64,000 nt of DNA from a virus (taxonomy: Duplodnaviria; Caudoviricetes): IMG/VR virus record IMGVR_UViG_3300027804_000001, positions 32,001 through 96,000 of that record. One strand, written 5' to 3'. The position numbers were made by a program, and so were the translations under genes. Below are positions 10,397 to 31,448 of the stretch, piece after piece (position 1 is the first letter of the stretch; each line of letters starts with the position of its first letter). The notes below the pieces were generated by a model that was given only the letters and a program-made list of their open reading frames with translations, was not told the DNA's origin and did not search any database.

Positions 10397-11882
<1,486 letters not shown>

Positions 11883-16840: not shown

Positions 16841-19146
16841 TATATCACCTTTACATTTAATTTAATTAAATTAGTGTTTAATGTTTCAACATTTTTAATT
16901 GAAATTAAACCTAATATGTTTGTAATTGTTGTTTTTGGTTTAAATGTTATTTTATAACCAATATTAGAAATTAATCCACCTGACGTATTTAACGAACCCA
17001 AACTTATAAATGAACCATTATTTTTACCAAAGTTTGTTGATTGTGTATTATTAAATTGAACACTTGAAAAATCTAAAATTGAATTATCAAAATATACGTC
17101 AAATTGAGTTGCACCAATACTATTGCCATTTGGATTTACCACTATAGTTGCAATTATACTATCACCAACTTTTTCCATCATTATATCTGCTTCAACATCA
17201 CCTATAGAATTATTTGTTACTGACATTGATTTTATTTCAGATGGTTGAGTAATACTACTTGATGATAAAACAAAACCTGTTGGTTGAGATGAATGAGAGA
17301 GATTTACATCACCTTTCCATGTAATATCTAAATTATATGAATTTAAAATACCGTTGGTAAAAGTAAATGGATAGTTAATTCTTTTAATATCTGTATATGT
17401 ACTCCATGTTTGTTTTGTGATATTATCATATGTTGTAGATGGAATTATTTTCATTGCATCTGCAATTGATGGTGTTGATTGCCATAAAGAATTCGTACCT
17501 TGTAAATGTGTTAATAAAGAATAACAATCTCTTTCATCAAAAACACCATCTTCGTTAACATCGGCATTGTGGAATTGAATACCGGATGTAAAATACTTAC
17601 TCTCATTACCCATAATACCTCTATCAGAATATTCTTTAAATGCCAAATAAACATCACCAACAGTGATTATATTACCTAATAATGTTTGTGTCTGTGATGT
17701 AGTTAAATTACCAAATGATATTGTGTGATATTTGTACATTAAATTTTGACCAAATGTTACTTCAGACGCAAATGCATAATCCGTATTCCATCCATTTACA
17801 TTTCTTATATAAGAGTTATAGATAGACGTTCCATCTGTTACCTTAGTTAATGAAGAAGGGACACTATATTGTGCCCAACCATTTACATCGTGAGATAAAT
17901 AAGTTACTGGACCATCATATGTATCTAATATTTTTACATTTGTTATTGATTGCGGAGTATAGTTCGTAAACTTTCTATAATCAATTAATAACCTACTTAC
18001 ACCATTACCCATCCAACTCGCATTTGGGTTTGTATATGACCACTCAACTTGACCAGGTACTATGGTTGCCTTATTTCCATTTCCCACAATTTGTGATGTG
18101 TCCATTTGATTAGTCATATCAACTCTACCAATACCATTTAAATTAACATATGAATAATTAGAAGAAAAATTTGTATTATCAGTAGATGTTAAAATTCTAC
18201 TTTTAAACATTGTTTCATCGACATTAGTACCAAAATTAAAATTGAATTGTGCTCTTAATGTTTGTCCATTTGAGTGAGAAACTGAGTTAGAATAAAATCC
18301 GGTAAATGTTTGGTCATCGGGATTAGACCATGTTCCATATTCGATTACATATGGATTAGACCAGTTAGGTAAATCGTTCCATTGAGAACCGCCTCCCCAT
18401 TTAGTTACTGCATAATCTTCATTACCCGAATTGTTTGGTTCACCACCCGCCCAGTTGTTATATTGTCCTTGTATATTTCCGTTTAATTGTCCGTTTGCAG
18501 TTTTAATTACGGTTCCTTTTTCGGGTCCCGCATCGATTACCCATCTACCTTCCGTTACCTCATCAGTTAATGCAAACCATATGTTTGTTTGTGGTACATT
18601 TGCAAAAATAAATGCATCTTCATCAGAGGATGTAATTGTCACCAAATATCCCGTTTGTCCTTTGAATGTTGTTGCTTCTGATGCGGTTCTTGCACCTGTG
18701 TATGTGTTTCCAGATGCCATTGGTCTATAAAAATGACCATTAGTTGGATTATAATAGTATCCTGTTGGATTAACTGTTGCCGATACCGATAACTGAATAG
18801 TACCAACGGTTGCGGTTGTGTTTACTTTGAGTGTTGCCAATGCATTGTTTATATTCGACATGGTTCCAGTAAAAACTAGCTTTGTTTTGTTACCACTCAT
18901 TGTGAATCCACTTGCAGGTAACAAACCCGTTGTTGTTGTTAAATAGAATGTTGTTCCCGACGGTGCTGTTGGTAATCCTATGGCACAAAGAAGGTTATCT
19001 GTTGAATTAAACCCACTTAAATTAAATCCACTAGCGTCTTGGGCTGTTGTGTTTACGGTAAACGACTTTGGGTCTGGTGCTATTATTTGCTGACCAAAAC
19101 CAAAGTTTGTAATTAGTATCAATAATATAACTAATAGTTTCTTCAT
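16840..19146 (-). CDS. Secreted adhesin-like protein: C-type lectin-like + dockerin-like + cohesin-like domains
   Basis: YNNWAGGEPNN..EDY..WND (C-type lectin); ADVNEDGVFDERDCYSLL (dockerin EF loop); IGATQFDVYFDNSILDF (cohesin-like). Confidence 0.65.
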   Translation of the reverse strand: MKKLLVILLILITNFGFGQQIIAPDPKSFTVNTTAQDASGFNLSGFNSTDNLLCAIGLPTAPSGTTFYLTTTTGLLPASGFTMSGNKTKLVFTGTMSNINNALATLKVNTTATVGTIQLSVSATVNPTGYYYNPTNGHFYRPMASGNTYTGARTASEATTFKGQTGYLVTITSSDEDAFIFANVPQTNIWFALTDEVTEGRWVIDAGPEKGTVIKTANGQLNGNIQGQYNNWAGGEPNNSGNEDYAVTKWGGGSQWNDLPNWSNPYVIEYGTWSNPDDQTFTGFYSNSVSHSNGQTLRAQFNFNFGTNVDETMFKSRILTSTDNTNFSSNYSYVNLNGIGRVDMTNQMDTSQIVGNGNKATIVPGQVEWSYTNPNASWMGNGVSRLLIDYRKFTNYTPQSITNVKILDTYDGPVTYLSHDVNGWAQYSVPSSLTKVTDGTSIYNSYIRNVNGWNTDYAFASEVTFGQNLMYKYHTISFGNLTTSQTQTLLGNIITVGDVYLAFKEYSDRGIMGNESKYFTSGIQFHNADVNEDGVFDERDCYSLLTHLQGTNSLWQSTPSIADAMKIIPSTTYDNITKQTWSTYTDIKRINYPFTFTNGILNSYNLDITWKGDVNLSHSSQPTGFVLSSSSITQPSEIKSMSVTNNSIGDVEADIMMEKVGDSIIATIVVNPNGNSIGATQFDVYFDNSILDFSSVQFNNTQSTNFGKNNGSFISLGSLNTSGGLISNIGYKITFKPKTTITNILGLISIKNVETLNTNLIKLNVKVI

Positions 19147-19149
19147 CCA

Positions 19150-20832
19150 CTATTCTACTGTTAAATCTATTTTGTTTCCGTTTCCATCAACAGCATCTGA
19201 TAACACAAAATAAAATAAACCAGCGGTATTTGTTAAATTTTCTTTAGGTGTGAAAATTAATTTATATGGTGTACCCACTTTAATTCTACCTGTTTTTATT
19301 TGGTCAATAGAACCGAAAGTTAATCTACCATTATTATGTGTTGAGAAATTTGTTACTGTTGATCCAGAATCAAAAATTACATTGTCTAATGTTAATTTTG
19401 ATTCATCATATTGCATTATAACTTCTAAACCAGCTAAATCAGATTTTGTTAAATTAGTAGTTAAAACAACTTTACCACCTTCTAACTTTGATGACACACT
19501 CAATGTTGCTTTTTCGTATTCTTTTGTTTGATATGAACCAACAACTAAATTTGAACTATTAACAGACATTGATTTTATATCCATTGTTCCAATTCGAGAT
19601 ACTGAGTTTGTGTAAATTCCATTTTGTATGTTTTGTGCAATAACAGCGGGATCAGTTGAATGTGACCAGTTCAAATCACCACCCCAAGCAAATACCGCAT
19701 TTGCGGTTTGAGTATTAGAAGTAATTAACACTCTATTTGTAGGTGTTCCATCTAACCAACTTTGATTCAACAAACCACTATACCATTTTACTGATGTTGA
19801 CGTTGATGTTGGTATCATGGCATTTGAATCGACATTTATACCCATAACATATGCAAACATGTAATAAGAATCACTTTCACTAAATACGGTTTTGTTTCTT
19901 GTGATTAAACCGACCTTCTTTTCTAAATTAGGGTAAGTAAAATATGTTGAATTACCATTTATATCGACTTGTGATACAGCAAGAAATGCTTTATAAGCAT
20001 CTGATACTGTAATAACATTATTCATCCATGTTCTTTGATATGCTGGTGCAACAAACACACCAACAGAATCGCCTATTTTTAAATTTGTAAATGTTGCTTC
20101 ACCACTTGCATCTAAAGGTGATGTTGTAATTGGTTGTTGTCCCCAATCTATTTGACCACTACCATCATTTTTTAATCTCATAATTTGAACGGTGTGGTCT
20201 GTTATTGTTGTATAATTTGATGGGAATGCAACTTTAACTTTAAATGATGATGAACCACCTGTTACATTACCTAAAGATATTGATGCACCAGATGTGGTAA
20301 TTGGTGATATATTTGTTGAAGTAGCATCAATTGCATACGCCAAAATTAAATTATGAATATCGGTGTATGATGTATTATCTTTAATTACAAATTTATGAGA
20401 TGCCAACTCCCCATTAATTGTTGCATCTGTTCTTTGTAAAGTTAATTGACCAACGTTCCAATCTGAATTCACAGCAAAATTCCAAGGAGAAGCCAAATAC
20501 TGTGCATATAGAGATGTTGATGCAGAATTTGCGTTTGGTGTAAATTTATAGTTGGCCCACTCAGTTGAATATGTTTGTACGGATGTACCTTGTCCGTATG
20601 TTATTGAGTTTGGTAATAACAATAAAGATTTGTTACTATATTGATATCTTAACCATACATAACGTGGTGTTGTTGCAGGATTTGTTCCTTTATCCACAAC
20701 ATATTTTACAGTTACTGTATCACCAACCTTATATGGACCCGTTGCGGGTGTAATTGTTCTGTTGATTGTCATTTGACCAAAAGACGCCAAAGAGATAGTT
20801 AATATCCCTAAAACAAATATTAGTTTTTTCAT
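19150..20832 (-). CDS. Secreted protein with dockerin-like and cohesin-like C-terminal modules
   Basis: Start refined to MKKLIF; ITVSDAYKAF, WGGDLNWSHS, LAGLEVIMQYDESKLTL shared in type with 16840..19146. Confidence 0.6.
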   Translation of the reverse strand: MKKLIFVLGILTISLASFGQMTINRTITPATGPYKVGDTVTVKYVVDKGTNPATTPRYVWLRYQYSNKSLLLLPNSITYGQGTSVQTYSTEWANYKFTPNANSASTSLYAQYLASPWNFAVNSDWNVGQLTLQRTDATINGELASHKFVIKDNTSYTDIHNLILAYAIDATSTNISPITTSGASISLGNVTGGSSSFKVKVAFPSNYTTITDHTVQIMRLKNDGSGQIDWGQQPITTSPLDASGEATFTNLKIGDSVGVFVAPAYQRTWMNNVITVSDAYKAFLAVSQVDINGNSTYFTYPNLEKKVGLITRNKTVFSESDSYYMFAYVMGINVDSNAMIPTSTSTSVKWYSGLLNQSWLDGTPTNRVLITSNTQTANAVFAWGGDLNWSHSTDPAVIAQNIQNGIYTNSVSRIGTMDIKSMSVNSSNLVVGSYQTKEYEKATLSVSSKLEGGKVVLTTNLTKSDLAGLEVIMQYDESKLTLDNVIFDSGSTVTNFSTHNNGRLTFGSIDQIKTGRIKVGTPYKLIFTPKENLTNTAGLFYFVLSDAVDGNGNKIDLTVE

Positions 20833-20833
20833 T

Positions 20834-21478
20834 TTATTCAAAAAGTTTAACTACAAGCGAACCACACGCTTTTTTTATTGCATTACTTAAGGATGTTTGG
20901 TTGAATTTACCACCCTCGTCTACGATTAATGTGGACATTGAGATTTCTGAAGACCCTTCCTCAACAACAACTTCTTTTACTTTTTTACCGTTTTTATAAA
21001 GAATACCTTTCATTCTAACAACAACTTTTTCCTCATTTTTATGAAAAACTGATACGTTTTTCTTTGTTGTCAGAATATCCAAATAAACAATTTCCACCTT
21101 AATTTTATTTTCAGCAGATGGACTTAAATCTTTACCATTTTCTTGTAGATATTCTTCTAATATGTTTTTAACCCCAAATGATAATTGTCTATTACCTGCA
21201 AGTTTTCCAATTTTAACATTGTTCTCCACACCCTCTACCCATACATGATCTTCAGATTCATACCATATATTTTCTGGCGAATTTTTAAATGTGCCATCAA
21301 TCATATGTGTAATCTTATTTGTCCAAGTGTTAACAATTTCATCCTGACCTGTGGCCATTAAAATTATTGTTGATACTTGAAAGGCAAGTGCTAAGAATAC
21401 CCAAGCAAGTGCAAATACTAAGAAAAATTGGAAGAATCTATCCCTAATCGATAGTGCGATAATTTTTACCCTCTCCAT
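20834..21478 (-). CDS. Membrane-anchored CsgG/LpoB-like alpha/beta protein
   Basis: Start refined to MERVKII; N-terminal TM; VEGVENN...SFGVKNILEEYLQE and ALSNAIKKAC-type terminal helix as in the CsgG-like gene. Confidence 0.45.
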   Translation of the reverse strand: MERVKIIALSIRDRFFQFFLVFALAWVFLALAFQVSTIILMATGQDEIVNTWTNKITHMIDGTFKNSPENIWYESEDHVWVEGVENNVKIGKLAGNRQLSFGVKNILEEYLQENGKDLSPSAENKIKVEIVYLDILTTKKNVSVFHKNEEKVVVRMKGILYKNGKKVKEVVVEEGSSEISMSTLIVDEGGKFNQTSLSNAIKKACGSLVVKLFE

Positions 21479-21544
21479 TGTTTTTAAGTTTTTTAGTTGT
21501 ATCACTAAAAACTTAAAACCTTACTCGGGTAAATTTTAAATTTC

Positions 21545-21570
21545 TAGGATACTTTTATTTATTTTGTTCA
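21545..21570. repeat. 26-bp direct repeat, right copy
   Basis: TAGGATACTTTTATTTATTTTGTTCA; matches 10341-10366. Confidence 0.8.
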
Positions 21571-21607
21571 TTTTATAAATATTTGAATAGTTGTTTAACG
21601 ATGTGAT

Positions 21608-21979
21608 TTAGTAGAGAATTTGCTTATTTTTTTCAAATATTTTGTATCCAAAGTCAATTCTTGTTTTAACTTGAGGTATTGAGAATTTTACAATTTCTTC
21701 TATCTCAATTATTAATTCGTTGTTTTCTCCTTTTAATTTTGAATTATCGTCGAAATATATATAACGATTTTTATCAAAATCTTTTCTCATTTTTTCATAT
21801 AAAACTTCATAATTTATTAATTCACAAACCATTTTTTCCATATGTAATAAATGAGGTGAAAGTTTTTTTAAAAGAAACGAGTTGTCAACTTTTTGTAGGT
21901 AGGCAAGTAAAACATATTGTTTTTGTTCAAAGTCAATCGGTGATTCCATATACCATGTAAGTGCTAGTTGATTCAACAT
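21608..21979 (-). CDS. Hypothetical protein
   Basis: 123-aa ORF. Confidence 0.75.
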   Translation of the reverse strand: MLNQLALTWYMESPIDFEQKQYVLLAYLQKVDNSFLLKKLSPHLLHMEKMVCELINYEVLYEKMRKDFDKNRYIYFDDNSKLKGENNELIIEIEEIVKFSIPQVKTRIDFGYKIFEKNKQILY

Positions 21980-22036
21980 TAAAATACTTTTTTATAAATA
22001 TTTTTAAATTTTCTTGTATTTTCATATACTTATTGT

Positions 22037-22044
22037 TATCTTTG
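22037..22044 (+). promoter_or_regulatory. Bacteroidota -7 element for tRNA unit 1
   Basis: TATCTTTG upstream of the leader ORF. Confidence 0.7.
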
Positions 22045-22069
22045 TTAGAGATTTAAATAAAAAAGTTCG

Positions 22070-22174
22070 ATGAAACAAGTAAAACATATTATGCACTCGT
22101 TTACAATCTGTTCAAAATGGGCGGATGAGCGTGTTATGCTTTTGTCTCGAACTGAAGATATTAATAAGGGCTAA
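22070..22174 (+). CDS. Attenuator leader peptide 1 (34 aa)
   Basis: MKQVKHIMHSFTICSKWADERVMLLSRTEDINKG; 3' part carries the antiterminator strand. Confidence 0.75.
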   Translation: MKQVKHIMHSFTICSKWADERVMLLSRTEDINKG

Positions 22175-22230
22175 ATAAAGATTGGCTTTAAATATTCAGA
22201 ACCTCGGGACAAAATCTCGGGGTTTTTTGT
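22140..22230 (+). promoter_or_regulatory. Transcription attenuator 1 (antiterminator/terminator)
   Basis: Terminator AACCTCGGGA/TCTCGGGGTT plus T tract (22200-22230); TTTTGTCTCGA (22140-22150) pairs with TCGGGACAAAA (22204-22214); CTGAA pairs with TTCAG. Confidence 0.8.
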
Positions 22231-22234
22231 TTTT

Positions 22235-22307
22235 GGGCCGGATGTCAATGGCAGACCACCTGATTTGCAATCAGAGTGAATGGGTTCGATTCCCAACGCG
22301 TCCACCA
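22235..22307 (+). tRNA. tRNA-Ala(TGC), atypical acceptor stem
   Basis: Anticodon loop TTTGCAA, G3:U70, encoded CCA; C:C and G:G mismatches at pairs 5-6. Confidence 0.7.
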
Positions 22308-22368
22308 ACCCCCGAGTTTAGGAGCTGGTATCTCCGTTTCTCGATATAACTGAAAAACTACCACACAT

Positions 22369-22441
22369 TCTTAGGTAGCTCAATGGTGAGAGCATCCGTC
22401 TGATACGCGGAAGGTTGATGGTTCGAGTCCATCTCTAAGAA
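22369..22441 (+). tRNA. tRNA-Ile(GAT)
   Basis: Full cloverleaf, loop CTGATAC. Confidence 0.92.
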
Positions 22442-22446
22442 CAATA

Positions 22447-22519
22447 GGAGATGAAGCTAACTTAGTAGAAGCGAAGGACTGAAAATCCTTAGGAGTTGGA
22501 GCGTAACCAACTATCTCCA
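22447..22519 (+). tRNA. tRNA-Phe(GAA), non-canonical T-loop
   Basis: AAGGA-CTGAAAA-TCCTT; T-loop AGCGTAA. Confidence 0.85.
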
Positions 22520-22524
22520 CAATT

Positions 22525-22598
22525 GACCTCTTAGCTCAGTTGGTTAGAGCACCTCACTTTTAATGAGGGAGTCCGCAGTTCGAGTCTGCGAGGGGTCA
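22525..22598 (+). tRNA. tRNA-Lys(TTT)
   Basis: Full cloverleaf, loop CTTTTAA. Confidence 0.95.
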
Positions 22599-22604
22599 CA
22601 ATAC

Positions 22605-22675
22605 ATGGGTGTGGTGCAATGGTAGCATTCCGGTCTCCAAAACCGTCGATGGGAGTTCGAATCTCTCCACCCGTG
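22605..22675 (+). tRNA. tRNA-Trp(CCA)
   Basis: Loop CTCCAAA, G73. Confidence 0.92.
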
Positions 22676-22693
22676 CAAAAATTAAATAAATGT

Positions 22694-22764
22694 GGTCTCA
22701 TAGTTTAATGGAAAAACGTCTCGCTACGGACGAGATGATTGGGGTTCGAATCCCTGTGAGACCT
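22694..22764 (+). tRNA. tRNA-Arg(ACG)
   Basis: TCTCG-CTACGGA-CGAGA. Confidence 0.92.
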
Positions 22765-22796
22765 CTGTTCATTGTTCGAGAACAAAGAACAAATAA

Positions 22797-22867
22797 GTCA
22801 GGTTGGCCGAGTGGTTAGGCTGAGGTCTGCAAAACCTCCTACATTGGTTCGAATCCAATACTTGACT
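22797..22867 (+). tRNA. tRNA-Cys(GCA)
   Basis: GAGGT-CTGCAAA-ACCTC, U73. Confidence 0.93.
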
Positions 22868-22869
22868 CT

Positions 22870-22945
22870 GTGATAGATGTTCGTATGGTAGAACCCAAGA
22901 TTGTGGCTCTTGGATTAGCGGGTTCGAATCCCGTCTATCACCCCA
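22870..22945 (+). tRNA. tRNA-His(GTG)
   Basis: Loop TTGTGGC; encoded G-1:C73. Confidence 0.9.
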
Positions 22946-22946
22946 T

Positions 22947-23018
22947 TGTGGGGAGGTTAGGTAACCCGTTTGGTCTCATAAGCCAGATATTCAGGTTCGA
23001 TTCCTGGCCCCGCAACCA
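22947..23018 (+). tRNA. tRNA-Met(CAT), probably elongator; short D-arm
   Basis: Loop CTCATAA, paired position 1:72, encoded CCA. Confidence 0.75.
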
Positions 23019-23059
23019 AAAAAAGATTAAAAATATTTTGTGATTTCACAATTTATTCT

Positions 23060-23067
23060 TATCTTTG
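23060..23067 (+). promoter_or_regulatory. Internal -7 promoter ahead of tRNA-fMet
   Basis: TATCTTTG; palindrome TTGTGATTTCACAA at 23038-23051 over the -33 region. Confidence 0.65.
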
Positions 23068-23077
23068 TAAAACAAAT

Positions 23078-23149
23078 CGCGAGATAGAGCAGCGGTAGCT
23101 CGGAAGGCTCATAACCTTTAGGTCGGGGGTTCGATTCCCTCTCTCGCAA
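23078..23149 (+). tRNA. tRNA-fMet(CAT)
   Basis: C1:A72 mismatch, loop CTCATAA. Confidence 0.88.
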
Positions 23150-23233
23150 CACTTGAGACTAACTCAACGAGGCTTTTGTCAACCAGAGCATGACTTGGAT
23201 GGTGCAGATTGAAGGTGGGTTAGAATCATTTTT

Positions 23234-23307
23234 GGTTTCTTGGTGTAGTGGCCTAACATGCCTCCCTGTCACGGAGGAGACCACGGGTTCGAATCCCGTA
23301 GGAACCG
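23234..23307 (+). tRNA. tRNA-Asp(GTC)
   Basis: CCTCC-CTGTCAC-GGAGG, G73. Confidence 0.95.
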
Positions 23308-23310
23308 CAA

Positions 23311-23472
23311 GTTGTTTCATACACTTAACACGCTTAGTAACAAAGCAAGGTACATAGAGTTACATAGAAGCATGGAGTGATTACCCGACGCTACATTCGG
23401 ACTACAAATGTGATTAGGTTCAGTCGTTGTAGAGAAAGAGATGTTAAGAGTAAACTTGCAAGTTGAAACAAC
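23311..23472 (+). ncRNA. Unidentified structured RNA between tRNA-Asp and tRNA-Ser
   Basis: Closing stems GTTGTTTCA/TGAAACAAC and CTTAACA/TGTTAAG, plus internal hairpins. Confidence 0.55.
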
Positions 23473-23476
23473 GATT

Positions 23477-23564
23477 GGAGAGATGGCAGAGTTGGCCGAT
23501 TGCGTCAGTCTTGAAAACTGAAGAACGGGAAACTGTTCCGTGGGTTCGAATCCTACTCTCTCCG
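23477..23564 (+). tRNA. tRNA-Ser(TGA)
   Basis: Long variable arm, loop CTTGAAA. Confidence 0.95.
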
Positions 23565-23569
23565 CACTT

Positions 23570-23641
23570 GCTCGGTTCGACTAGTGGTCAGGTCGCGTCC
23601 CTTTCACGGACGTAGCACGGGTTCGAATCCCGTACCGAGTA
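23570..23641 (+). tRNA. tRNA-Glu(TTC)
   Basis: CGTCC-CTTTCAC-GGACG. Confidence 0.95.
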
Positions 23642-23699
23642 CAAAAATTTTTTTATTATTTAAACTTTTTATATATTCACATATACTTATAAAACAGAG

Positions 23700-23804
23700 A
23701 TGAAGAATTTGAATAACATATCAACACTTAGTACGAGACCAGTTAATGGTAATGGGTATGGTGTGCAACCGTTATGTTACTCAAGTTCGGATTTCAAAAT
23801 GTAA
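23700..23804 (+). CDS. Attenuator leader peptide 2 (34 aa)
   Basis: MKNLNNISTLSTRPVNGNGYGVQPLCYSSSDFKM; 3' part carries the antiterminator strand. Confidence 0.75.
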   Translation: MKNLNNISTLSTRPVNGNGYGVQPLCYSSSDFKM

Positions 23805-23862
23805 GATTCAATCTACCTAAGATATCGAAACCCGAACTCAACAAAAAAGTTCGGGTTTTTTG
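23784..23862 (+). promoter_or_regulatory. Transcription attenuator 2 (antiterminator/terminator)
   Basis: Terminator AAACCCGAACT/AGTTCGGGTTT plus T tract; AGTTCGGATTTC (23784-23795) pairs 11/12 with GAAACCCGAACT (23827-23838). Confidence 0.82.
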
Positions 23863-23895
23863 TTTTAGTAATTTTTTATTCTTATATTTTATTAG

Positions 23896-23907
23896 GTTCT
23901 TTGACAT
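23896..23907 (+). promoter_or_regulatory. boxA-like antitermination element
   Basis: GTTCTTTGACAT just upstream of tRNA-Leu; recurs at 27150 and 29548. Confidence 0.55.
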
Positions 23908-23920
23908 TGTGGGAAAATTT

Positions 23921-24005
23921 GCCGAGGTGATGGAATGGTAGACATGACAGACTTAAAATCTGTTGGGACGAAAGTCCCGTGCGGGTTCGACTCCCGCTCT
24001 CGGTA
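23921..24005 (+). tRNA. tRNA-Leu(TAA)
   Basis: ACAGA-CTTAAAA-TCTGT, long variable arm. Confidence 0.95.
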
Positions 24006-24044
24006 CAAACACTATCGTTCTTTGGAAATAAAGGAGAAAATAAT

Positions 24045-24290
24045 ATGGATATATTATCATTTATTTTAGGAATGTCCGTTGTGGTGGTTATCGCGGTTGC
24101 GGTAGTTGCTGTAATGGCCTTTGTTAAGGTGAGAAAACATAACAAAGAAATTGATGAAATTCATCAAATAATCGGAAGAGAAATTGATGTACAAAACAGA
24201 GAGCGTGAAACAATTGTTCAAGACATATATCGAACACTAGATTCACGACTTGATAAACTTGAAAGTAAATTAAACAGCCGTAAGGCATAA
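24045..24290 (+). CDS. 81-aa single-TM coiled-coil protein inside the tRNA array
   Basis: Start refined to 24045 after AAGGAG; N-terminal hydrophobic helix; flanked by inverted repeats. Confidence 0.75.
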   Translation: MDILSFILGMSVVVVIAVAVVAVMAFVKVRKHNKEIDEIHQIIGREIDVQNRERETIVQDIYRTLDSRLDKLESKLNSRKA

Positions 24291-24329
24291 CAATTAAATA
24301 AAAAACTTTCAAAGACGATAGTGTTAATT

Positions 24330-24404
24330 GGTCTGATAGTTAAACGGATATAACAACTCTCTTCTAAAGAGTAATTCGTGGTTCGATTCCACGTCGGACT
24401 ACCA
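24330..24404 (+). tRNA. tRNA-Arg(TCT)
   Basis: ACTCT-CTTCTAA-AGAGT, encoded CCA. Confidence 0.93.
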
Positions 24405-24406
24405 TT

Positions 24407-24480
24407 CGGGATTTAGTACAGTCCGGTAGTATGCTTGGTTTGGGACCAAGAGGTCGTAGGTTCGAATCCTGCAATCCCGA
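24407..24480 (+). tRNA. tRNA-Pro(TGG)
   Basis: CTTGG-TTTGGGA-CCAAG. Confidence 0.95.
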
Positions 24481-24485
24481 CACTT

Positions 24486-24557
24486 GTCTTCTTAGCTCAG
24501 CGGTAGAGCATCTCGCTGTTAACGAGAGGGTCCAAGGTTCGAAACCTTGAGAGGACG
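24486..24557 (+). tRNA. tRNA-Asn(GTT)
   Basis: TCTCG-CTGTTAA-CGAGA, G73. Confidence 0.93.
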
Positions 24558-24563
24558 CAAATT

Positions 24564-24647
24564 GGCCGAGTGGTGGAATGGTAGACACGTTGGTCTTAGG
24601 AACCAATGTTGAAAAACGTGAGAGTTCGAATCTCTCCTTGGTCACCA
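24564..24647 (+). tRNA. tRNA-Leu(TAG)
   Basis: TTGGT-CTTAGGA-ACCAA, long variable arm, CCA. Confidence 0.95.
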
Positions 24648-24653
24648 ATAAAA

Positions 24654-24734
24654 TGGGGTATCGCATAGTGGCAATTGCGGGGGACTGTAAATCCCCTCTC
24701 ATTGAGTTCGGCGGTTCGAGTCCGTCTACCCCAA
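24654..24734 (+). tRNA. tRNA-Tyr(GTA)
   Basis: GGGGA-CTGTAAA-TCCCC, long variable arm. Confidence 0.92.
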
Positions 24735-24740
24735 CAAATT

Positions 24741-24814
24741 GGACTCGTAGCTCAGTTGGTCAGAGCAGGGCACTCATAATGCCAAGGTCGGGGGATCGTG
24801 ACCCTCCGGGTCCA
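24741..24814 (+). tRNA. tRNA(CAT), probably Ile2 (lysidine, reads ATA); non-canonical T-loop
   Basis: Loop CTCATAA, GGACTCG acceptor resembling Ile-type tRNAs, A73; T-loop ATCGTGA. Ile2 vs Met is inference. Confidence 0.7.
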
Positions 24815-24818
24815 CAAT

Positions 24819-24893
24819 AGAAGATTAGCTCAGAGGAAGAGCATTTGGTTTACATCCAAAGGGTCGGGATTTCAAAATTCTCATCTTCTACCA
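24819..24893 (+). tRNA. tRNA-Val(TAC), atypical T-arm
   Basis: TTTGG-TTTACAT-CCAAA; T-loop TTCAAAA; CCA. Confidence 0.85.
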
Positions 24894-24919
24894 AACTCGG
24901 AAGTAAAAACGAGACAAAT

Positions 24920-24995
24920 GCGGAAGTAGCTCATTAGGTAGAGCGTCTGCTTGCCAAGCAGAAGGTGGCCAGTTCGAGCCTGGTCTTCCGCTCCA
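24920..24995 (+). tRNA. tRNA-Gly(GCC)
   Basis: TCTGC-TTGCCAA-GCAGA, U73, CCA. Confidence 0.95.
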
Positions 24996-24998
24996 CAA

Positions 24999-25072
24999 GC
25001 TTCCTTAGCTCAGCAGGCCAGAGCACGTGATTTGTAATCTCGGGGTCGTCAGTTCGATTCTGACAGGAAGCT
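24999..25072 (+). tRNA. tRNA-Thr(TGT)
   Basis: Loop TTTGTAA. Confidence 0.92.
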
Positions 25073-25130
25073 CAAAAGGACTTTAATGGTTGAAGTACAA
25101 AACTGACGTAGGTTAGTCCCACCTACAAAT

Positions 25131-25202
25131 GCAGATGTCGTATAATGGCTATTACTCCATCCTTCCAAGTTGGAGACGAAGGTTCGATTCCTTTCATCTG
25201 CT
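25131..25202 (+). tRNA. tRNA-Gly(TCC)
   Basis: Loop CTTCCAA, U73. Confidence 0.92.
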
Positions 25203-25265
25203 CAATCATCAAAGAGACCGCTAAATCGAGTTAGTGAAAATCTACATTCTCAATGATGATTATTC

Positions 25266-25336
25266 TGTCCTTTAGTATAACGGTAGTACAGGTGGTTTTG
25301 GTCCATCTAGTTGGGGTTCGAATCCCTGAGGGACAA
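25266..25336 (+). tRNA. tRNA-Gln(TTG)
   Basis: GGTGG-TTTTGGT-CCATC, U1-A72. Confidence 0.92.
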
Positions 25337-25337
25337 C

Positions 25338-25577
25338 ATGGAATTAATAGCATACATAGGTGGAATATTACTTACAATTTGTGGTATACCTGAAGTCATT
25401 AGAACAATTAAAGATAAACGATGTCACTTAGGGTGGCCATTTTTATTATTATGGTTTTTTGGTGAGGTGTTTATGTTAATATATTCGGTTGATTTAAAAA
25501 GTTATCCATTAATAATGAATTATCTTTTTAATACCATTATTGTTGGGGTTATGTTATATTATAAAATAAAAAAATAA
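25338..25577 (+). CDS. PQ-loop / SemiSWEET-like 3-TM transporter
   Basis: Start refined to MELIAYIGG; ICGIPEVIRTIK PQ-loop-like motif, three TM helices, conserved N in TM3. Confidence 0.65.
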   Translation: MELIAYIGGILLTICGIPEVIRTIKDKRCHLGWPFLLLWFFGEVFMLIYSVDLKSYPLIMNYLFNTIIVGVMLYYKIKK

Positions 25578-25590
25578 AATAAAATAAACT

Positions 25591-25890
25591 ATGTGGTTAT
25601 ATGTCTTAGTATTTTTCTTTCAAGTTTTATTCAATGTTTTTAAAACTATGGAGATAAAATACACTTATGAGAATAAAGTTAAACAACTTGTGTTTAATTC
25701 GGTATGGATAAATCTTGTATCATTAGGTTCAACTTATTTTGCACTTGATAGATTATTTGCCAAAGATTGGACGGTTATTATTGTTTATATAAGTGGTAGT
25801 GTTTTTGGTAAATGGTGGGCAATGACACACTTTGTAAATTATGAAAATAAATTTTACGAATTTTTAAATAAAAGAAAAACAAAAAAATAA
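25591..25890 (+). CDS. Small multi-TM protein (DUF5698/UPF0316-like)
   Basis: Three hydrophobic segments, YISGSVFGKW-type motif. Confidence 0.5.
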   Translation: MWLYVLVFFFQVLFNVFKTMEIKYTYENKVKQLVFNSVWINLVSLGSTYFALDRLFAKDWTVIIVYISGSVFGKWWAMTHFVNYENKFYEFLNKRKTKK

Positions 25891-25893
25891 AAT

Positions 25894-26127
25894 ATGTATT
25901 TAACATTTCACATTATCTGTATCATTTATTGTATGTATCAACTAATAAAAAAATACAATAAATTATCAAATCCCGGTATGATTGGTGTATCTCCTGGTTT
26001 AGAGACCATTATGGTCATTGTATTAGCTCCTGCACTTGCAATTGTTGATGTATCATTAACATGGATTCGTTGGTATAAAGAAGCCGAAGAAGCTAGAAGA
26101 AGAAATGACGAAAGAAAAATTTTTTAG
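25894..26127 (+). CDS. Small membrane protein
   Basis: 77 aa; stop codon abuts tRNA-Ser. Confidence 0.65.
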   Translation: MYLTFHIICIIYCMYQLIKKYNKLSNPGMIGVSPGLETIMVIVLAPALAIVDVSLTWIRWYKEAEEARRRNDERKIF

Positions 26128-26212
26128 GAGAGTTACCCAAGTTGGTGAAGGGGGCAGTTTGCTAAACTGTTAGGGTGTTAAAGCCGCGAGGGTTCGAGCC
26201 CCTCACTCTCCG
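26127..26212 (+). tRNA. tRNA-Ser(GCT)
   Basis: GCAGT-TTGCTAA-ACTGT, long variable arm, G73. Confidence 0.93.
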
Positions 26213-26217
26213 CAAAT

Positions 26218-26387
26218 TGTAGTGTGTTGAAAAACGATTGACACGCGTGTCAATCTGGCAGACAAGCCCTCCTGTCTCGGGGGTGTGGATAACGAAATAG
26301 ATTGGTAATATGGGGTAGACCACCATCCTGCAGGAATGTGTTATCAATTGAATCGCCTCGTGGATGGTTCGAATCCTCCCACTACAG
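26218..26387 (+). ncRNA. 170-nt expanded tRNA-Asp(GTC)-like RNA
   Basis: Acceptor TGTAGTG/CACTACA + G73; anticodon arm CCCTC-CTGTCTC-GGGGG; GGTTCGAATCC T-loop; hairpin insertions in D-loop and variable region. Confidence 0.7.
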
Positions 26388-26415
26388 CTAAAATAATTAT
26401 AGTAAATGAAATGAA

Positions 26416-26877
26416 ATGAAACAATTTAGAACTCTCTATGGGACAAATATTCCTAACTTGATTGAGTATGTTAGAGAATACATCTCAACAAGAGAGAACG
26501 TAGAAATTCTCATCGGATCTGACTCACAATGTTATGGAAATAAGAAAACCATTTATGGTGTTGTAATAGCATTATATACACCAGGGAAAGGTGCACATGT
26601 TTTATGTACTCGTGAGACAACTTCGATGGAATATAATACACCATCTAGATTGTTAAATGAGGTTTGGAAATCTATTGAAATTGCGGAATGGTTAAAAGAA
26701 AATGGATTACCTAAACCTACATGGATTGATATTGATTTAAATCCTGACCCAAAGTATAAATCTAATTCCGTATTAAGACAGGCAGTTGGTTTAGTCGAGG
26801 GTATGGGATATAAAGTTAGGTATAAACACTTAGGTGCGTTAACAACATATGCTGCTAATCATTTAGTACGTATTTAA
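26416..26877 (+). CDS. YkuK-like RNase H-fold protein (DUF458)
   Basis: ILIGSDSQ, RLLNEVWKSIEIA, IDIDLNPD, AANHL motifs. Confidence 0.75.
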   Translation: MKQFRTLYGTNIPNLIEYVREYISTRENVEILIGSDSQCYGNKKTIYGVVIALYTPGKGAHVLCTRETTSMEYNTPSRLLNEVWKSIEIAEWLKENGLPKPTWIDIDLNPDPKYKSNSVLRQAVGLVEGMGYKVRYKHLGALTTYAANHLVRI

Positions 26878-26907
26878 AAATAATAATAAATTATTTATAT
26901 TTTTAAT

Positions 26908-27090
26908 ATGGGATACACTAACTCTGATTTAATGGAAGAGATTATGATTCTTTCTTTTGAAGAAGGAATTATTAATGATGTGAGAGAAGAGGTAATGAGG
27001 ATATTAAATAATAATCAAACTTTACCTTTATACGAAATATATGAAATGGCGTATAATAAAATCTCGAAAAAAAATTTTAAAAATAATTGA
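26908..27090 (+). CDS. Hypothetical protein
   Basis: 60-aa ORF. Confidence 0.6.
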   Translation: MGYTNSDLMEEIMILSFEEGIINDVREEVMRILNNNQTLPLYEIYEMAYNKISKKNFKNN

Positions 27091-27120
27091 CAAAAATTTT
27101 GTTTTTAAATAAACTCTTCG

Positions 27121-27128
27121 TATATTTG
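27121..27128 (+). promoter_or_regulatory. -7 promoter of the large ncRNA
   Basis: TATATTTG followed by boxA-like GTTCTTTGAC at 27150-27159. Confidence 0.7.
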
Positions 27129-27134
27129 TAAAAC

Positions 27135-27970
27135 AATCGGAAACGATAAGTTCTTTGACTAAAAATATTGGCCGCCTATGGTCATTAAATAAACTGTGAA
27201 AGCAGTATAAAGTGAATCTGAATTAGTTATTCAGGTTTGCGGTTTCAGAAATGGAACTTGAGTAGGCAAGCGGGATATCATCGAACCTTAAGTACTGAGG
27301 GTGACACTTTAGGGAAAGTGGTTTGGTGACCAAGCGATACCGGTCGTTTGGTTGAGGTGGGAACACCAATAAGAATAACTCGTAGAATTATTGTAAAAAG
27401 TATGGTCTCCAACTATACAATTGCGTGATTCAATACAATGGGAATCTTAAAACCGAAAGGTATGGTGATGTACAGGTGGTGCTGTTATTATCCTTGATTT
27501 GAATCTACCAAGATTCTTATCTCGAAGGGGTCCAAAAGTATGGAGGTAGGGATATCTCAGAGGGTAGTTTAGTATCGTGTTGTTCAAAAGATGACATGTC
27601 TGGTGACGAGCCACTACCTTCCAAATCGGTAACTAAAATCATTTTGTTAATTTTGGTTTAACAAACTTAAATACAAAAGGAAAAGTGCTCGTCAGTCGTT
27701 AGAGACAGGTGACTACATAGTCGTGAGGGGTTCACGGCCACAAAGGGTCCCAAGCCCAATGTGAATTGTAAGAAAGTTCTCTAGTCCCGCAAGGATTAAT
27801 CGGGGTGGCAACCTCGAAGAGTAATGAGTAAGATGAGAGTATCTAATGACTTAAGGATTGGTTAATCTAATTGACCGTCACTGGTTGGTACAGTTCAAAA
27901 GACTGTGGATAAGAAAGGAAACAATAATCTTTCTAAAGTCAACTACTAAAACTTGTAATCTCAGAGTTTT
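27135..27970 (+). ncRNA. Large structured ncRNA, GOLLD-like
   Basis: About 830 nt without a credible ORF, GC-richer than flanks, many hairpins (ACC-GAAA-GGT, GGGGT-GGCAA-CCTC, CAGT-TCAAAAG-ACTG), ends ..TGTAATCTCAG..; size and tRNA-adjacent phage context fit GOLLD; family call from memory, not a model search. Confidence 0.65.
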
Positions 27971-28040
27971 GTTTTTTAGTTTTAATAAACTAAATGGTGG
28001 AAGAGACCTCACAAAAATATTAACCGTGCGGCCCCAAATC

Positions 28041-28068
28041 AAGTCAGAATATTTCTGACTTTTTTTTT
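28041..28068 (+). terminator. Intrinsic terminator downstream of the large ncRNA
   Basis: AAGTCAGAA-tat-TTCTGACTT plus T tract. Confidence 0.75.
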
Positions 28069-28100
28069 GCATATTAAAAAATATTTTTTATATTATTAAA

Positions 28101-28856
28101 ATGAGAATTGTTTGTATATCTGATACACATAGTCTCCATAAAAATATGGAGAAATATGGACCATTACCCGAAGGTGATGTATTAATACATGCGGGTGATT
28201 GTACAAACAAAGGAGAAAAACGTGATGTAGAAGAATTTGTTCATTGGTTTATGAACATAAAAGGATTTGATTCTAAAATTTTTATTGCCGGTAATCACGA
28301 TTTTGCATTTGAAGAACATAGATATCCACATCATAAAGGTGAATACGATTGGTTTCATCATTTAATGACACCTGAAAATTTATCACAATCAGATGTTGTG
28401 TATCTTGAAGATAGTGAGTTCATAATTGAATCACCTGAATTTAATAGACCAATAAAATTTTATGGATCGCCTTGGCAACCGGAGTTTTATAATTGGGCAT
28501 TTAATTTACCAAGACTTGGTGAAGATTTAAAAAGATATTGGTCAATGATTCCTGATGATACTGATGTATTAATTACCCACGGACCACCTAATGAAGCGAG
28601 GGATTTTGTAAATAATTGGAGACAAGGTAGTATTAATGTTGGGTGTGAATTATTACGTCATCGTGTAGATGAAATAAAACCTTTGTTACATGTGTTTGGT
28701 CACATTCACGGAGGTTATGGTGGTGCTTATATTAAAGACACTCTTTTTGTTAATGCATCAATTTGTACAGAACAATACATACCATCAAATAAACCCATTG
28801 TAATTGAATTAAAAGAATTCGATGGAAATATAGAAGCAATTTATGTCGAAGAATAA
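28101..28856 (+). CDS. Calcineurin-like metallophosphoesterase (MPPED/Rv0805-like)
   Basis: ISDTH, HAGD, AGNHD, THGPP, FGHIH. Confidence 0.9.
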   Translation: MRIVCISDTHSLHKNMEKYGPLPEGDVLIHAGDCTNKGEKRDVEEFVHWFMNIKGFDSKIFIAGNHDFAFEEHRYPHHKGEYDWFHHLMTPENLSQSDVVYLEDSEFIIESPEFNRPIKFYGSPWQPEFYNWAFNLPRLGEDLKRYWSMIPDDTDVLITHGPPNEARDFVNNWRQGSINVGCELLRHRVDEIKPLLHVFGHIHGGYGGAYIKDTLFVNASICTEQYIPSNKPIVIELKEFDGNIEAIYVEE

Positions 28857-29526
28857 TCAACCTGTAAGTGTTATAATACCAACACGTCAAATAGATGATG
28901 ACTATTTGAAACATGTGAGTAAGATGTTTTCACATCCTAAAACTGAAATAATTGTTTATGAAAATAATGGTGAAGAATCTTTACCACAAATTTATAATAA
29001 AGGTTTAGAAGAATCGACATACGATATTGTTGTTTTTATGCATGACGATTTAATTATTGAGACGACAAATATTACACCTAAAATTGTTAAATTATTTGAT
29101 AAAAATCTTGAGTATGGTATTTTAGGTTTAGCAGGAACAAATAATTTATTAAGTGGAATGTGGTGGCAAGATAGAACATCTATGTATGGTGTTGTTGGTC
29201 ATGAACATAATGGAAAAAGACATGTGAATTATTATTCAAAACAAATGTTCACTGAGACACCTAAAGAAGTGGTTGTTGTTGATGGATTATTTATGATGGT
29301 TCATAAAAAAAGAATCAAACATAAATTCAACGAACAGTTTGAAGGTTTTCATTTTTACGATTTACCAATATGTCTTGATAATCATTTGGATGGGGTTAAA
29401 ATTGGAGTTACAACTAGAATTAGAGTAACACACAAATCAATAGGAATGGTTAATAAAAAATGGGAGAAGAATAAACTTCTATTTGAGGCGTTATATGAAA
29501 AAAACTTTCCTTTGGTAATATCATAA
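28843..29526 (+). CDS. GT-A glycosyltransferase-like protein
   Basis: YNKG, VFMHDD, VVVDGLFM, FHFYDLPIC motifs. Confidence 0.75.
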   Translation: MSKNNQPVSVIIPTRQIDDDYLKHVSKMFSHPKTEIIVYENNGEESLPQIYNKGLEESTYDIVVFMHDDLIIETTNITPKIVKLFDKNLEYGILGLAGTNNLLSGMWWQDRTSMYGVVGHEHNGKRHVNYYSKQMFTETPKEVVVVDGLFMMVHKKRIKHKFNEQFEGFHFYDLPICLDNHLDGVKIGVTTRIRVTHKSIGMVNKKWEKNKLLFEALYEKNFPLVIS

Positions 29527-29561
29527 AATATTTATATCTTTACATTAGTTCTTTAAAATAT

Positions 29562-29955
29562 GGGGGTGTCTGGTATTGATTGGCGTTAATATGATAGGTG
29601 GGCACGTAGTCGGATGTCATCTACGACTTTAATCAACGGTGGTAAAATTCAAACGGCAACGTTTACAACAAAATGGAAGCTTGCGGATTAATTGCAACTT
29701 CTAACGTAGCAGTAGCCTAAGGCGAGACTACATTCGGGTCGGTTAGGACATTAACCTAGGAACAGAAGTCCAATATACGGGTCACAGGTCAGAGCTCGTT
29801 TAAAATAATTCTGAGACCAGGTTGTTTATAGGTTGGTTTCCCACATACATCAAACCTAATATTTCGGAACATTGAGAAACAATGTTGTAATAAACGTGTA
29901 GTCCATTTATGGTATTGCGAGCAAGACACGGGTTCGACTCCCGTCACCTCCACCA
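29562..29955 (+). ncRNA. ssrA: tmRNA
   Basis: Ala acceptor GGGGGTG/CACCTCC-ACCA with G3:U70, T-arm GGTTCGACTCC; tag ORF 29655-29720 GNVYNKMEACGLIATSNVAVA*. Confidence 0.93.
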
Positions 29956-29959
29956 AAAG

Positions 29960-29987
29960 TAAAACCCCTCTATTGAGGGGTTTTTTA
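29960..29987 (+). terminator. tmRNA terminator
   Basis: AAAACCCCTC-tatt-GAGGGGTTTT plus T tract. Confidence 0.8.
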
Positions 29988-30045
29988 TATGTTTATAAAT
30001 ATAAATCGATGTTTCACGTGAAATTATATGTATTAAAATATAATA

Positions 30046-30534: not shown

Positions 30535-30584
30535 AAAACTAATTTATATTATAATATAACATAAATTATTGACAAAATCAATTA

Positions 30585-31184: not shown

Positions 31185-31244
31185 AATTTTTTATTTAATT
31201 TTTGGTTTATTAACTATAAATATCTCACATTTAATTAAAAGGAT

Positions 31245-31448
31245 TTAACCAAATTTAACCATTCCCTTGTACTGGTTTTTTATTTTTTTAATTTCATTCA
31301 TTGCCTCATTATATGATTTTTTAATGTCTTCATTAACCGTAAAATCGAGTATTGTTTTACAGTTGGGACAGGCAGATATGGGATGTTTTATAATAAACTC
31401 TAAGGTTAAACCCAATGGGGTTTTACACATGGGACAAGGTAACGACAT
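31245..31448 (-). CDS. Small Zn-ribbon protein
   Basis: Start refined to MSLPCPMC; CPMC...CPNC. Confidence 0.7.
   Translation of the reverse strand: MSLPCPMCKTPLGLTLEFIIKHPISACPNCKTILDFTVNEDIKKSYNEAMNEIKKIKNQYKGMVKFG

Follow-up and report, generated by a model that had tools for sequence, protein, structure and literature searches.

Putative multi-codon attenuators ahead of the tRNA units of a phage from freshwater metagenomes

Leader ORFs and terminators at the two tRNA units

We analyzed a 64,000-nucleotide (nt) stretch of phage DNA (positions 32,001 to 96,000 of IMG/VR record IMGVR_UViG_3300027804_000001; Duplodnaviria, Caudoviricetes), referred to below in its entirety as the window, with a focus on its transfer RNA (tRNA) genes and the short open reading frames (ORFs) that precede them. 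The window has a G+C content of 31% and many short ORFs, and the public sequencing runs that contain it are freshwater metagenomes. Between 22369 and 26213, ARAGORN identifies two + strand blocks with a total of 25 tRNA genes, and it also detects a transfer-messenger RNA (tmRNA). A 26th gene, Ala-TGC at 22235-22307, is a weak call that scores 29.7 bits in Rfam (22235-22304) and is found by ARAGORN at relaxed threshold only. The two blocks, designated unit 1 and unit 2 (Table 1), each begin with a promoter-like box, a 34-codon ORF, a hairpin and T-tract located 15-22 nt past the ORF, and a strand in the ORF tail that could compete for the 5′ arm of that hairpin. An earlier sequence-only reading had described these elements and proposed that the ORFs are leader peptides which sample the codons read by the downstream tRNAs; all of them were recovered at both units.

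A conserved TAnnTTTG box precedes the leaders, and the L1 type adds an upstream TTG, with the cttttcttg...tatctttg arrangement kept upstream of nearly all L1-type leaders. We take a TAnnTTTG box with an upstream TTG to be the Bacteroidota-type promoter consensus, and the boxes fit a dedicated transcription start at a promoter of this type. A second promoter-like pair, TTTG...TATCTTTG, lies inside unit 1 (23036-23069, +; box at approximately 23062-23069) and is directly followed by an initiator-like tRNA-Met at 23078 with a C1-A72 mismatch. Four small membrane-like ORFs are situated between the tRNAs of unit 2; Pfam returned no match for these or for the gene upstream.

When both strands of the 64 kb were scanned, four ORFs of 25-62 codons ended 8-45 nt before a good terminator, and two of the four are the leaders. 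Both leader regions fold better than dinucleotide shuffles (z = -4.15 for leader 1 and -4.71 for leader 2), and in both minimum-energy folds the 5′ part of the ORF pairs with its 3′ part (1:2) and the terminator (3:4) is formed. The antiterminator strand of leader 1 pairs with 22204-22212 and neighboring bases in the 5′ arm and loop of the terminator, giving a duplex of -16.6 kcal/mol, and that of leader 2 pairs with the terminator 5′ arm GAAACCCGAAC at -14.1 kcal/mol. An Rfam scan of 20000-31000 (E ≤ 1) found no T-box and no family match within 22050-22234 or 23680-23866. Among amino-acid leader families its sole match was a sub-threshold Phe_leader at 29955-30018 (-), which corresponds to the terminator of the tmRNA and not to either leader.

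Table 1. Positions of leaders, tRNA units and other features in the window and in other phages
Feature	Sequence	Positions	Strand	Description
Unit 1 promoter-like element	Window	22011-22044	+	TTG 22014-22016, about 20 nt, then TAnnTTTG-type -7 box TATCTTTG 22037-22044; read from sequence
Leader ORF 1	Window	22070-22174	+	ATG start, 34 codons + TAA; MKQVKHIMHSFTICSKWADERVMLLSRTEDINKG
Leader 1 sensing window	Window	22082-22138	+	Codons 5-23; two Met aside, all but two read by unit 1 tRNAs
Leader 1 antiterminator strand (segment 2)	Window	22139-22157	+	Within codons 24-30
Intrinsic terminator 1	Window	22198-22234	+	12-bp stem 22198-22226 with two G-U pairs, then TTTTTTGTTTTT
tRNA unit 1	Window	22235-23642	+	Ala-TGC, Ile-GAT, Phe, Lys, Trp, Arg-ACG, Cys, His, Met-CAT x2, Asp, Ser-TGA, Glu
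Unit 2 promoter-like element	Window	23672-23690	+	TATATTCA (in relatives TATATTTG or TATCTTTG), then CATATACTTAT
Leader ORF 2	Window	23700-23804	+	ATG start, 34 codons + TAA; MKNLNNISTLSTRPVNGNGYGVQPLCYSSSDFKM
Leader 2 sensing window	Window	23706-23774	+	Codons 3-25; all except one TCA read by unit 2 tRNAs
Leader 2 antiterminator strand	Window	23783-23796	+	AAGTTCGGATTTCA, codons 28-33
Intrinsic terminator 2	Window	23827-23866	+	Stem-loop 23827-23859, then T-tract
tRNA unit 2	Window	23921-26213	+	Leu-TAA, Arg-TCT, Pro, Asn, Leu-TAG, Tyr, CAT, Val, Gly-GCC, Thr, Gly-TCC, Gln, Ser-GCT
Spacer between tRNA-Asp and tRNA-Ser(TGA)	Window	23309-23476	+	168 nt
tRNA-like RNA	Window	26214-26392	+	About 170 nt, directly after tRNA-Ser(GCT)
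DUF458 protein gene	Window	26416-26874	+	RNase H-like, Pfam PF04308; just downstream of the tRNA arrays
GOLLD RNA	Window	27560-27967	+	Full length; Rfam RF02032, 322.5 bits, E = 2.5e-92
tmRNA	Window	29562-29955	+	Rfam 88.8 bits; ARAGORN tag peptide ATSNVAVA*
Bidirectional terminator	Window	29961-29984		After the tmRNA
CTA-anticodon tRNA	L023	15029-15100		ARAGORN
CTA-anticodon tRNA	L032	12048-12122		ARAGORN
CTA-anticodon tRNA	L042	12063-12137		ARAGORN
CTA-anticodon tRNA	L047	11605-11677		ARAGORN
Four leaders	Salicola phage SCTP-2 (L098, MF360958.1)	11521-11670, 18695-18826, 23742-23855, 31198-31284		Annotated as hypothetical proteins, genes 335, 351, 364, 379
Four leaders	Uncultured phage (L099, LR745206.1)	381-476, 23030-23116, 24082-24165, 45701-45817
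KVP40-like ORF	Vibrio phage VS1 (L093)	8766-8879
KVP40-like ORF	KVP40 (L094)	4117-4230
KVP40-like ORF	D482 (L095)	4110-4226
KVP40-like ORF	1.081.O (L096)	4107-4220

Codons were assigned to tRNAs by standard wobble, with inosine for the ACG anticodon and U34 superwobble in four-codon boxes. The CAT-anticodon tRNA of unit 2 was taken as an ATA-reading Ile2; this is an assumption, as which CAT species is Met and which is Ile2 is not settled, and in some relatives an Ile-TAT gene in that block makes the ATA assignment explicit. Under these rules the two blocks jointly read all sense codons except CGG, with no overlap. The 34 codons of leader 1 divide into 25 read by block 1 and 9 read by block 2, and those of leader 2 into 10 and 24, respectively. 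We could reproduce the counts that had first drawn attention to the leaders, namely 19 of the first 23 codons of leader 1 for block 1 and, given superwobble and a block 2 CAT tRNA that reads ATA, 23 of codons 3-27 of leader 2 for block 2. Each leader samples every species of its own unit, as had been claimed (12/12 for leader 1 and 13/13 for leader 2; 11/11 and 12/12 with Met and CAT species set aside), and only around one in two species of the other unit. Where the isoacceptors of one amino acid are divided between the units, the sensing windows follow that division: leader 1 has CGT for Arg, ATT/ATC for Ile and TCG/TCA for Ser, and leader 2 has AGA, ATA and AGT, as well as GGT and GGG for Gly and TTG/TTA and CTT for Leu.

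Random 34-codon ORFs drawn with window codon usage reach full coverage with P = 9e-4 for leader 1 and 3.3e-3 for leader 2. Requiring the codon counts as well lowers these values to 3e-5 and 4e-4; they are 3e-3 and 7e-3 with CAT species excluded and family-wide codon usage. Of 126 window ATG ORFs with 28-45 codons, only leaders 1 and 2 show full coverage. An AT-rich window with many short ORFs speaks for a chance origin, in which random short ORFs happen to lie before ordinary terminators. We regard this explanation as refuted and give it next to no weight, given P values of approximately 1e-3 per leader, the 2/126 ORFs, the unequal sampling of own and other units, and conservation, with frames maintained in about 80 contigs.

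Leader composition in related and unrelated phages

A search of GenBank phage DNA with the region gave tRNA-level matches only and no close relative. The DUF458 protein, used as a query against IMG/VR, retrieved 80 loci (94-52% identity), many of them on contigs of 100-324 kb; the upstream 123-amino-acid protein retrieved unrelated loci only, without tRNAs. Most of the related loci have 20-28 tRNAs, in several different orders. To avoid circularity, leaders were defined by structure alone, as ATG ORFs of 25-62 codons that do not overlap a tRNA, end 8-45 nt ahead of a T-run hairpin with an energy of -11.5 kcal/mol or lower, and have a + strand tRNA within 260 nt. This procedure yielded 75 leaders from the 80 loci, 57 of which are non-redundant. 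Their frames are kept despite divergence and in-frame indels, and there were no stray matches: all belong to five families or adjoin one (L029 7430, L053 6534). Leader ORF 1 is conserved in 16 non-redundant relatives and leader ORF 2 in 18.

In 29 leaders from genomes with two units, own-unit species were sampled in 321 of 325 cases and other-unit species in 153 of 329. Relatives with a single array have one longer leader of 28-53 codons, which contains 19-20 distinct amino acids and samples up to 24 of 24 species. Examples are L053 (28 codons, 19 distinct amino acids, 17/17 species), L054 (31, 20, 19/19), L080 (39, 20, 20/21), L072 (44, 20, 24/24) and L065 (49, 20, 23/23); full coverage was also recorded at 21/21 species. 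For single-array leaders, the probability of equal coverage by random ORFs ranged from 5e-6 to 4e-3. Across all families, a residue was present in the sensing window in 669 cases and absent in 46 when the corresponding tRNA was in the unit, and present in 95 and absent in 235 when it was not.

Genomes in which a tRNA gene has changed its position or been lost often show corresponding changes in the leaders. In L029, where the Asp and Glu tRNAs are found in the other unit, KWADER is replaced by KWTAIR and the other leader has gained E and D. In the L032-L047 clade the Thr tRNA is now in unit 1 and leader 2 lacks T, and the Val tRNA has moved into unit 1, where leader 1 reads KWAEVADI. The Gln tRNA has left the unit in L016, and GVQP has become GVLP; L052 is without a Phe tRNA, and its leader has Y in place of F. 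When tRNAs lie upstream of the leader, the residues tend to be missing as well: the Gly tRNAs precede the leader of L053, which contains no G, and the Thr tRNA precedes the leaders of L059-L070, most of which contain no T. Since the sequences are related, the pooled P values overstate independence, and the matched direction of several separate tRNA moves is the stronger argument. The sequence-only reading had expected leader content to co-vary with tRNA content while the peptides diverged. The first expectation holds, with exceptions; the second holds only in part, as the core order is fairly conserved within a family, for example SFTICSKWADER and NGNGYGVQP.

The division of split isoacceptors seen in the window extends to the two-unit relatives. 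Arg, Ser and Ile codons in their sensing windows comprise 110 that are read by the leader's own unit and 10 read by the other, with 63.8 own-unit codons expected from the codon usage of genes. Leader 1 specifies Arg as CGT, CGC or CGA, though AGA accounts for 52% of the Arg codons in genes, and leader 2 uses AGA, ATA (31% usage) and always one GGG (8% usage). In L007 and L011 the otherwise invariant GGG is changed to GGC, and a new GGG appears six residues earlier. Single-array leaders of family G place isoacceptors side by side, as in CGT AGA for Arg and AGT TCG for Ser, and elsewhere contain TTG/CTA, GGG/GGC and ATA/ATT pairs. Considered column by column, synonymous changes are about as likely to switch isoacceptor class as to preserve it; what seems to be constrained is the set of codons and not their positions.

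The structure-only search was extended to unrelated phages in GenBank, in stretches rich in tRNA genes. Salicola phage SCTP-2 carries four leader and terminator cassettes, each of which precedes a small tRNA sub-cluster. The leader rich in K, F, W, V, S and G is followed by Lys-Phe-Trp-Val-Ser-Gly tRNAs, that rich in S, E and T by Ser-Glu-Thr, that rich in L, P, Y and Q by Leu-Pro-Leu-Tyr-Gln, and the one with D, H, M and I by Asp-His-Met-Ile. LR745206, a 635-kb uncultured phage, likewise has four leaders, which feature H, F, W, K and S; E and Y; I, G and A; and N, L, T, V, I, M and R. When leaders were tabulated against units for the two phages, 6 of 8 leaders scored highest with their own unit, and 7 of 8 were enriched over background for own-unit codons (binomial p from 7e-6 to 0.014).

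An unannotated ORF of 37-38 codons is common to KVP40-like vibriophages, and its four diverged versions each contain 19 distinct amino acids; in KVP40 itself, a minus-strand coding sequence is annotated over it. A GGACGC...GCGTCC terminator comes next and the tRNA array about 90 nt later, and no clear antiterminator was found at this ORF. The title of PMC4122927 names a promoter-terminator module in T4-like phages, and the vibriophage terminator may belong to a module of that kind. In a cultured system, this ORF may represent a comparable pan-codon leader; we treat it as a lead only. No leader candidate was found in Phaeobacter phage MD18, LR756501 or the Lak-A1 stretch, and thus the design is not universal among tRNA-rich phages. 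The single candidate in Pseudomonas phage Milchi was unconvincing and was set aside.

Several further features of these loci were recorded. Near the array end of several relatives is a tRNA with a CTA anticodon, an amber suppressor that ARAGORN labels Pyl, which hints that TAG may be read as a sense codon in part of the phage group; no such tRNA was found in the window. The tRNA-like RNA that follows unit 2 has an acceptor-like closing stem, a GGTTCGAATCC T-arm and large internal hairpins, and is called by ARAGORN at relaxed threshold only, as an intron-containing tRNA. GOLLD RNA lies about 1.3 kb downstream of the arrays. DUF458 proteins also adjoin tRNA arrays in Phaeobacter, Ruegeria, Pseudomonas and Vibrio phages (27-36% identity; L091, L092, L093), which suggests a role tied to tRNA metabolism.

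Alternative helices and a model for attenuation

The distribution of matched codons along the leaders is not uniform. Counting back from the stop codon, codons -27 to -11 are nearly all read by the leader's own unit, with 283 own versus 5 other between -21 and -11, whereas the last nine codons comprise 117 own and 122 other, and the first few are mixed. The best duplex between the ORF and the 5′ arm of the terminator lies approximately 33 to 0 nt before the stop (typically 25 to 6) in 52 of the 57 leaders; it is situated further upstream in L029 7430, L057, L059, L062 and L070. Judging from the usual size of a ribosome footprint, the end of the matched-codon zone would lie approximately at the point from which a stalled ribosome starts to cover the antiterminator strand with its leading edge.

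Terminator sequences are wholly different between leader families, and on average ORF tails match their own terminator arm best. Pairing of tail and arm averages -14.1 kcal/mol for own combinations and -8.0 kcal/mol for cross-family combinations (permutation p < 1e-5), and the own arm ranks first in 12 of 18 cases. Across 16 aligned L1-type leaders, pairing in the antiterminator helix amounts to 82.6%, a figure lowered by a window row that is misaligned by five columns; three of its pairs have changed on both sides, and 0 of 500 shuffles were as good. In the same alignment the terminator is paired throughout (100%) and has two pairs with changes on both sides. One position in the strand common to the two helices varies in concert with its partner in each.

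We propose that the leaders are ribosome-mediated transcription attenuators that gate the tRNA units, each tuned to the codons its unit decodes, and on comparative grounds we assign this reading a probability of about 0.77. Transcription would start at the promoter just upstream, and a ribosome would translate the 34-codon leader behind the polymerase. If all sampled codons were decoded rapidly, the ribosome would reach the ORF tail and cover the antiterminator strand (approximately 25 to 6 nt before the stop), the terminator hairpin would form, and transcription would end before the first tRNA. If aminoacyl-tRNA were scarce for any codon in the sensing window, the ribosome would stall upstream and leave the antiterminator strand free to pair with the terminator 5′ arm, and the polymerase would enter the tRNA unit. 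With no ribosome on the leader, the 1:2 and 3:4 helices would be expected to form. As phage tRNAs accumulate the stall would disappear and the unit would be switched off, a demand-driven feedback with a separate loop for each unit. Each unit would be under autoregulation by demand, as its own tRNAs relieve the stall. Sequence and comparison show the elements, how they are conserved, the match of codons to tRNAs and the covariation of the competing helices; that the leader is translated, which way the switch turns and what triggers it in the cell are the parts of this scheme that we infer. The sequence-only reading had already supposed that a stall frees the antiterminator strand and induces the matching tRNA set, and the comparison lends support to that idea through conservation, coverage, the merged leaders of single-array relatives, tRNA moves, geometry, compensatory changes and the unrelated phages.

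A number of observations weigh against the attenuation model or qualify it. Some concern the match itself: codons 2-4 and some sensing-window codons are read by the other unit, Val, Gly and Asn codons stay in some leaders without that tRNA in the unit, leader 2 of L018 retains T although the Thr tRNA has moved, and a full leader precedes just four tRNAs in L035-L039. Others concern the level at which the leaders are tuned. Synonymous shuffles that keep the peptide fixed reach equal species coverage (p = 0.09-0.73 per leader), so single leaders cannot separate the codon level from the amino-acid level, and with this test not significant, the main basis for codon-level tuning is provided by the counts of split isoacceptors; these are not phylogenetically independent and rely on the assumed ATA decoder. 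Variable columns are spread near-evenly over codon positions, with no third-position excess and no classic coding signature beyond the frame; we therefore do not claim purifying selection on the peptide. With regard to transcription, the internal box at about 23062 may allow the last tRNAs of unit 1 to bypass leader 1, and the host is a presumed member of the Bacteroidota, in which coupling of transcription and translation is not established. Metatranscriptome contigs show only related fragments, with two low-depth contigs across terminator 2, from libraries that may contain DNA; such contigs do not reveal transcript starts, ends or levels, and we base no conclusion on them.

The best-covered non-tRNA part of the region in those contigs is the spacer between tRNA-Asp and tRNA-Ser(TGA), with a summed contig depth of 56-140 compared with about 3 over leader 2. 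This spacer may be a stable processed RNA, which contigs cannot show.

The evidence on structure bears on two other explanations of the leaders. Their translation might act in another way, through Rho-dependent polarity, nuclease protection or RNase P/E processing, or as a general report of ribosome availability. The U-tract of the terminator abuts the 5′ end of tRNA-Ala, so that the leader is also an RNase P substrate leader, and the 1:2 and 3:4 helices of the minimum-energy fold form without a ribosome, both of which are in line with such a route. We nonetheless consider it improbable: every family has conserved hairpin-plus-U-tract terminators and antiterminators that exclude them, with compensatory changes in both, and a sensor of ribosome availability needs no unit-specific choice of codons. 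Even less probable, in our estimation, is that the ORFs encode functional micro-proteins, with terminators that end transcripts or insulate the arrays and a codon-tRNA match that is non-regulatory. The fairly conserved core order within families, and a promoter-like stretch after the terminator in KVP40-like phages, are what this explanation has in its favor. It is opposed by the way composition tracks the downstream tRNAs in non-homologous leaders of unrelated phages, by a matched zone that stops right before the antiterminator strand, by ORF tails that co-vary with the terminator arm, and by columns that vary at all three codon positions, unlike those of a constrained protein. At neither leader does Rfam give a match; the leader peptides themselves were not put to a protein-family search.

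A special case of the attenuation model concerns its trigger. Phage tRNAs can rescue infection from tRNA-targeting defenses, and the leaders could be dedicated counter-defense sensors, the specific idea of the sequence-only reading, that respond to cleavage or depletion of host tRNAs by anticodon nucleases, or to host shut-off, by inducing the replacement tRNAs. That the leaders sample every species the phage can replace is consistent with this, and a phage tmRNA would fit a concern with stalled ribosomes. However, nothing in the sequence distinguishes nuclease damage from codon-usage mismatch, decay of host tRNAs, amino-acid shortage or product feedback, no defense or anti-defense gene was linked to the locus, and autoregulation explains the per-unit matching equally well. 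We view a dedicated role of this kind as possible but doubtful.

Comparison with known systems and implications

Attenuation by leader peptides is a known class of regulation. The phage leaders resemble the multivalent leaders of ilvGMEDA, ilvBN and thr in E. coli and Salmonella in that a putative promoter is followed by a short, presumably translated leader with regulatory codons, and they share with amino-acid operon attenuators in general the competition between a 3:4 terminator and a 2:3 antiterminator and the proposed selection of the antiterminator by a stall at hungry codons; an upstream 1:2 pairing is present in the minimum-energy folds of the two window leaders. They differ in what they regulate and in how much they sense. 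Operon attenuators control biosynthetic enzymes and sense 1-3 amino acids (trpL, hisL, leuL and pheL are single-amino-acid attenuators), whereas the phage leaders would control tRNAs and sense 11-20 amino acids and up to 24 anticodon species. Sampling is mostly by one codon per species, in contrast to the runs found in operon leaders; the antiterminator strand is located inside the ORF tail; the tRNA product would relieve the signal directly; and the system is encoded by a phage, probably of a Bacteroidota host. As the regulated genes here would be 13 + 13 tRNAs, and not genes for amino-acid biosynthesis or transport, the phage leaders are not ordinary members of the leader-peptide attenuators.

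T-box riboswitches also sense the supply of specific tRNAs and operate a terminator/antiterminator switch ahead of translation-related genes. They bind uncharged tRNA by means of a specifier codon and the T-box sequence, without a ribosome, whereas in the phage leaders a translated ORF would be the sensor. The ermCL, catA86, vmlR and msrD leaders are similar in that a short ORF reports slowed translation and an RNA switch induces a gene that relieves it, but leaders of the ermCL type depend on stalling of a drug-peptide-ribosome complex at motifs and not on scarcity of tRNA, and many act on translation and not on an intrinsic terminator. The arrays themselves are comparable to those of T5, T4 and vibriophages, near-complete tRNA sets in large lytic phages that compensate for loss of host tRNAs. 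Published work on phage tRNA arrays addresses, as far as we have searched, what the tRNAs do and not control of their transcription by leader peptides, and we found no description of leader-peptide control of tRNA genes in the full-text literature, subscription journals lying outside the search. While the class is known, its application to tRNA genes, a valency of up to the whole code, and feedback by the product would be new.

Why phages carry tRNA arrays and how they use them is a long-standing question, in which regulation of the arrays has hardly been considered. We think it more probable than not that large phages of several unrelated lineages and host phyla exert closed-loop, per-codon supply control over their tRNA genes, in which the leader is a test track for the anticodons of its unit, covering up to 20 amino acids and about 24 anticodons, and the ribosome is a general sensor of the decoding pool through which the phage could notice and fill any gap in it, among them gaps left by tRNA-targeting defenses. 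The hypothesis is directly testable in cultured systems, and it has a bearing on annotation, as such ORFs are unannotated or covered on the wrong strand in GenBank records such as that of KVP40. If it is correct, tRNA genes would join the small set of genes controlled by ribosome stalling, with the regulated product being the molecule that is sensed, and multivalent attenuation would extend from 2-3 amino acids to the whole code. The leaders would provide compact natural parts for sensing tRNA availability and a direct read-out of the decoding capacities that limit a phage in its host, and they would connect tRNA-targeting defenses to an inducible phage response.

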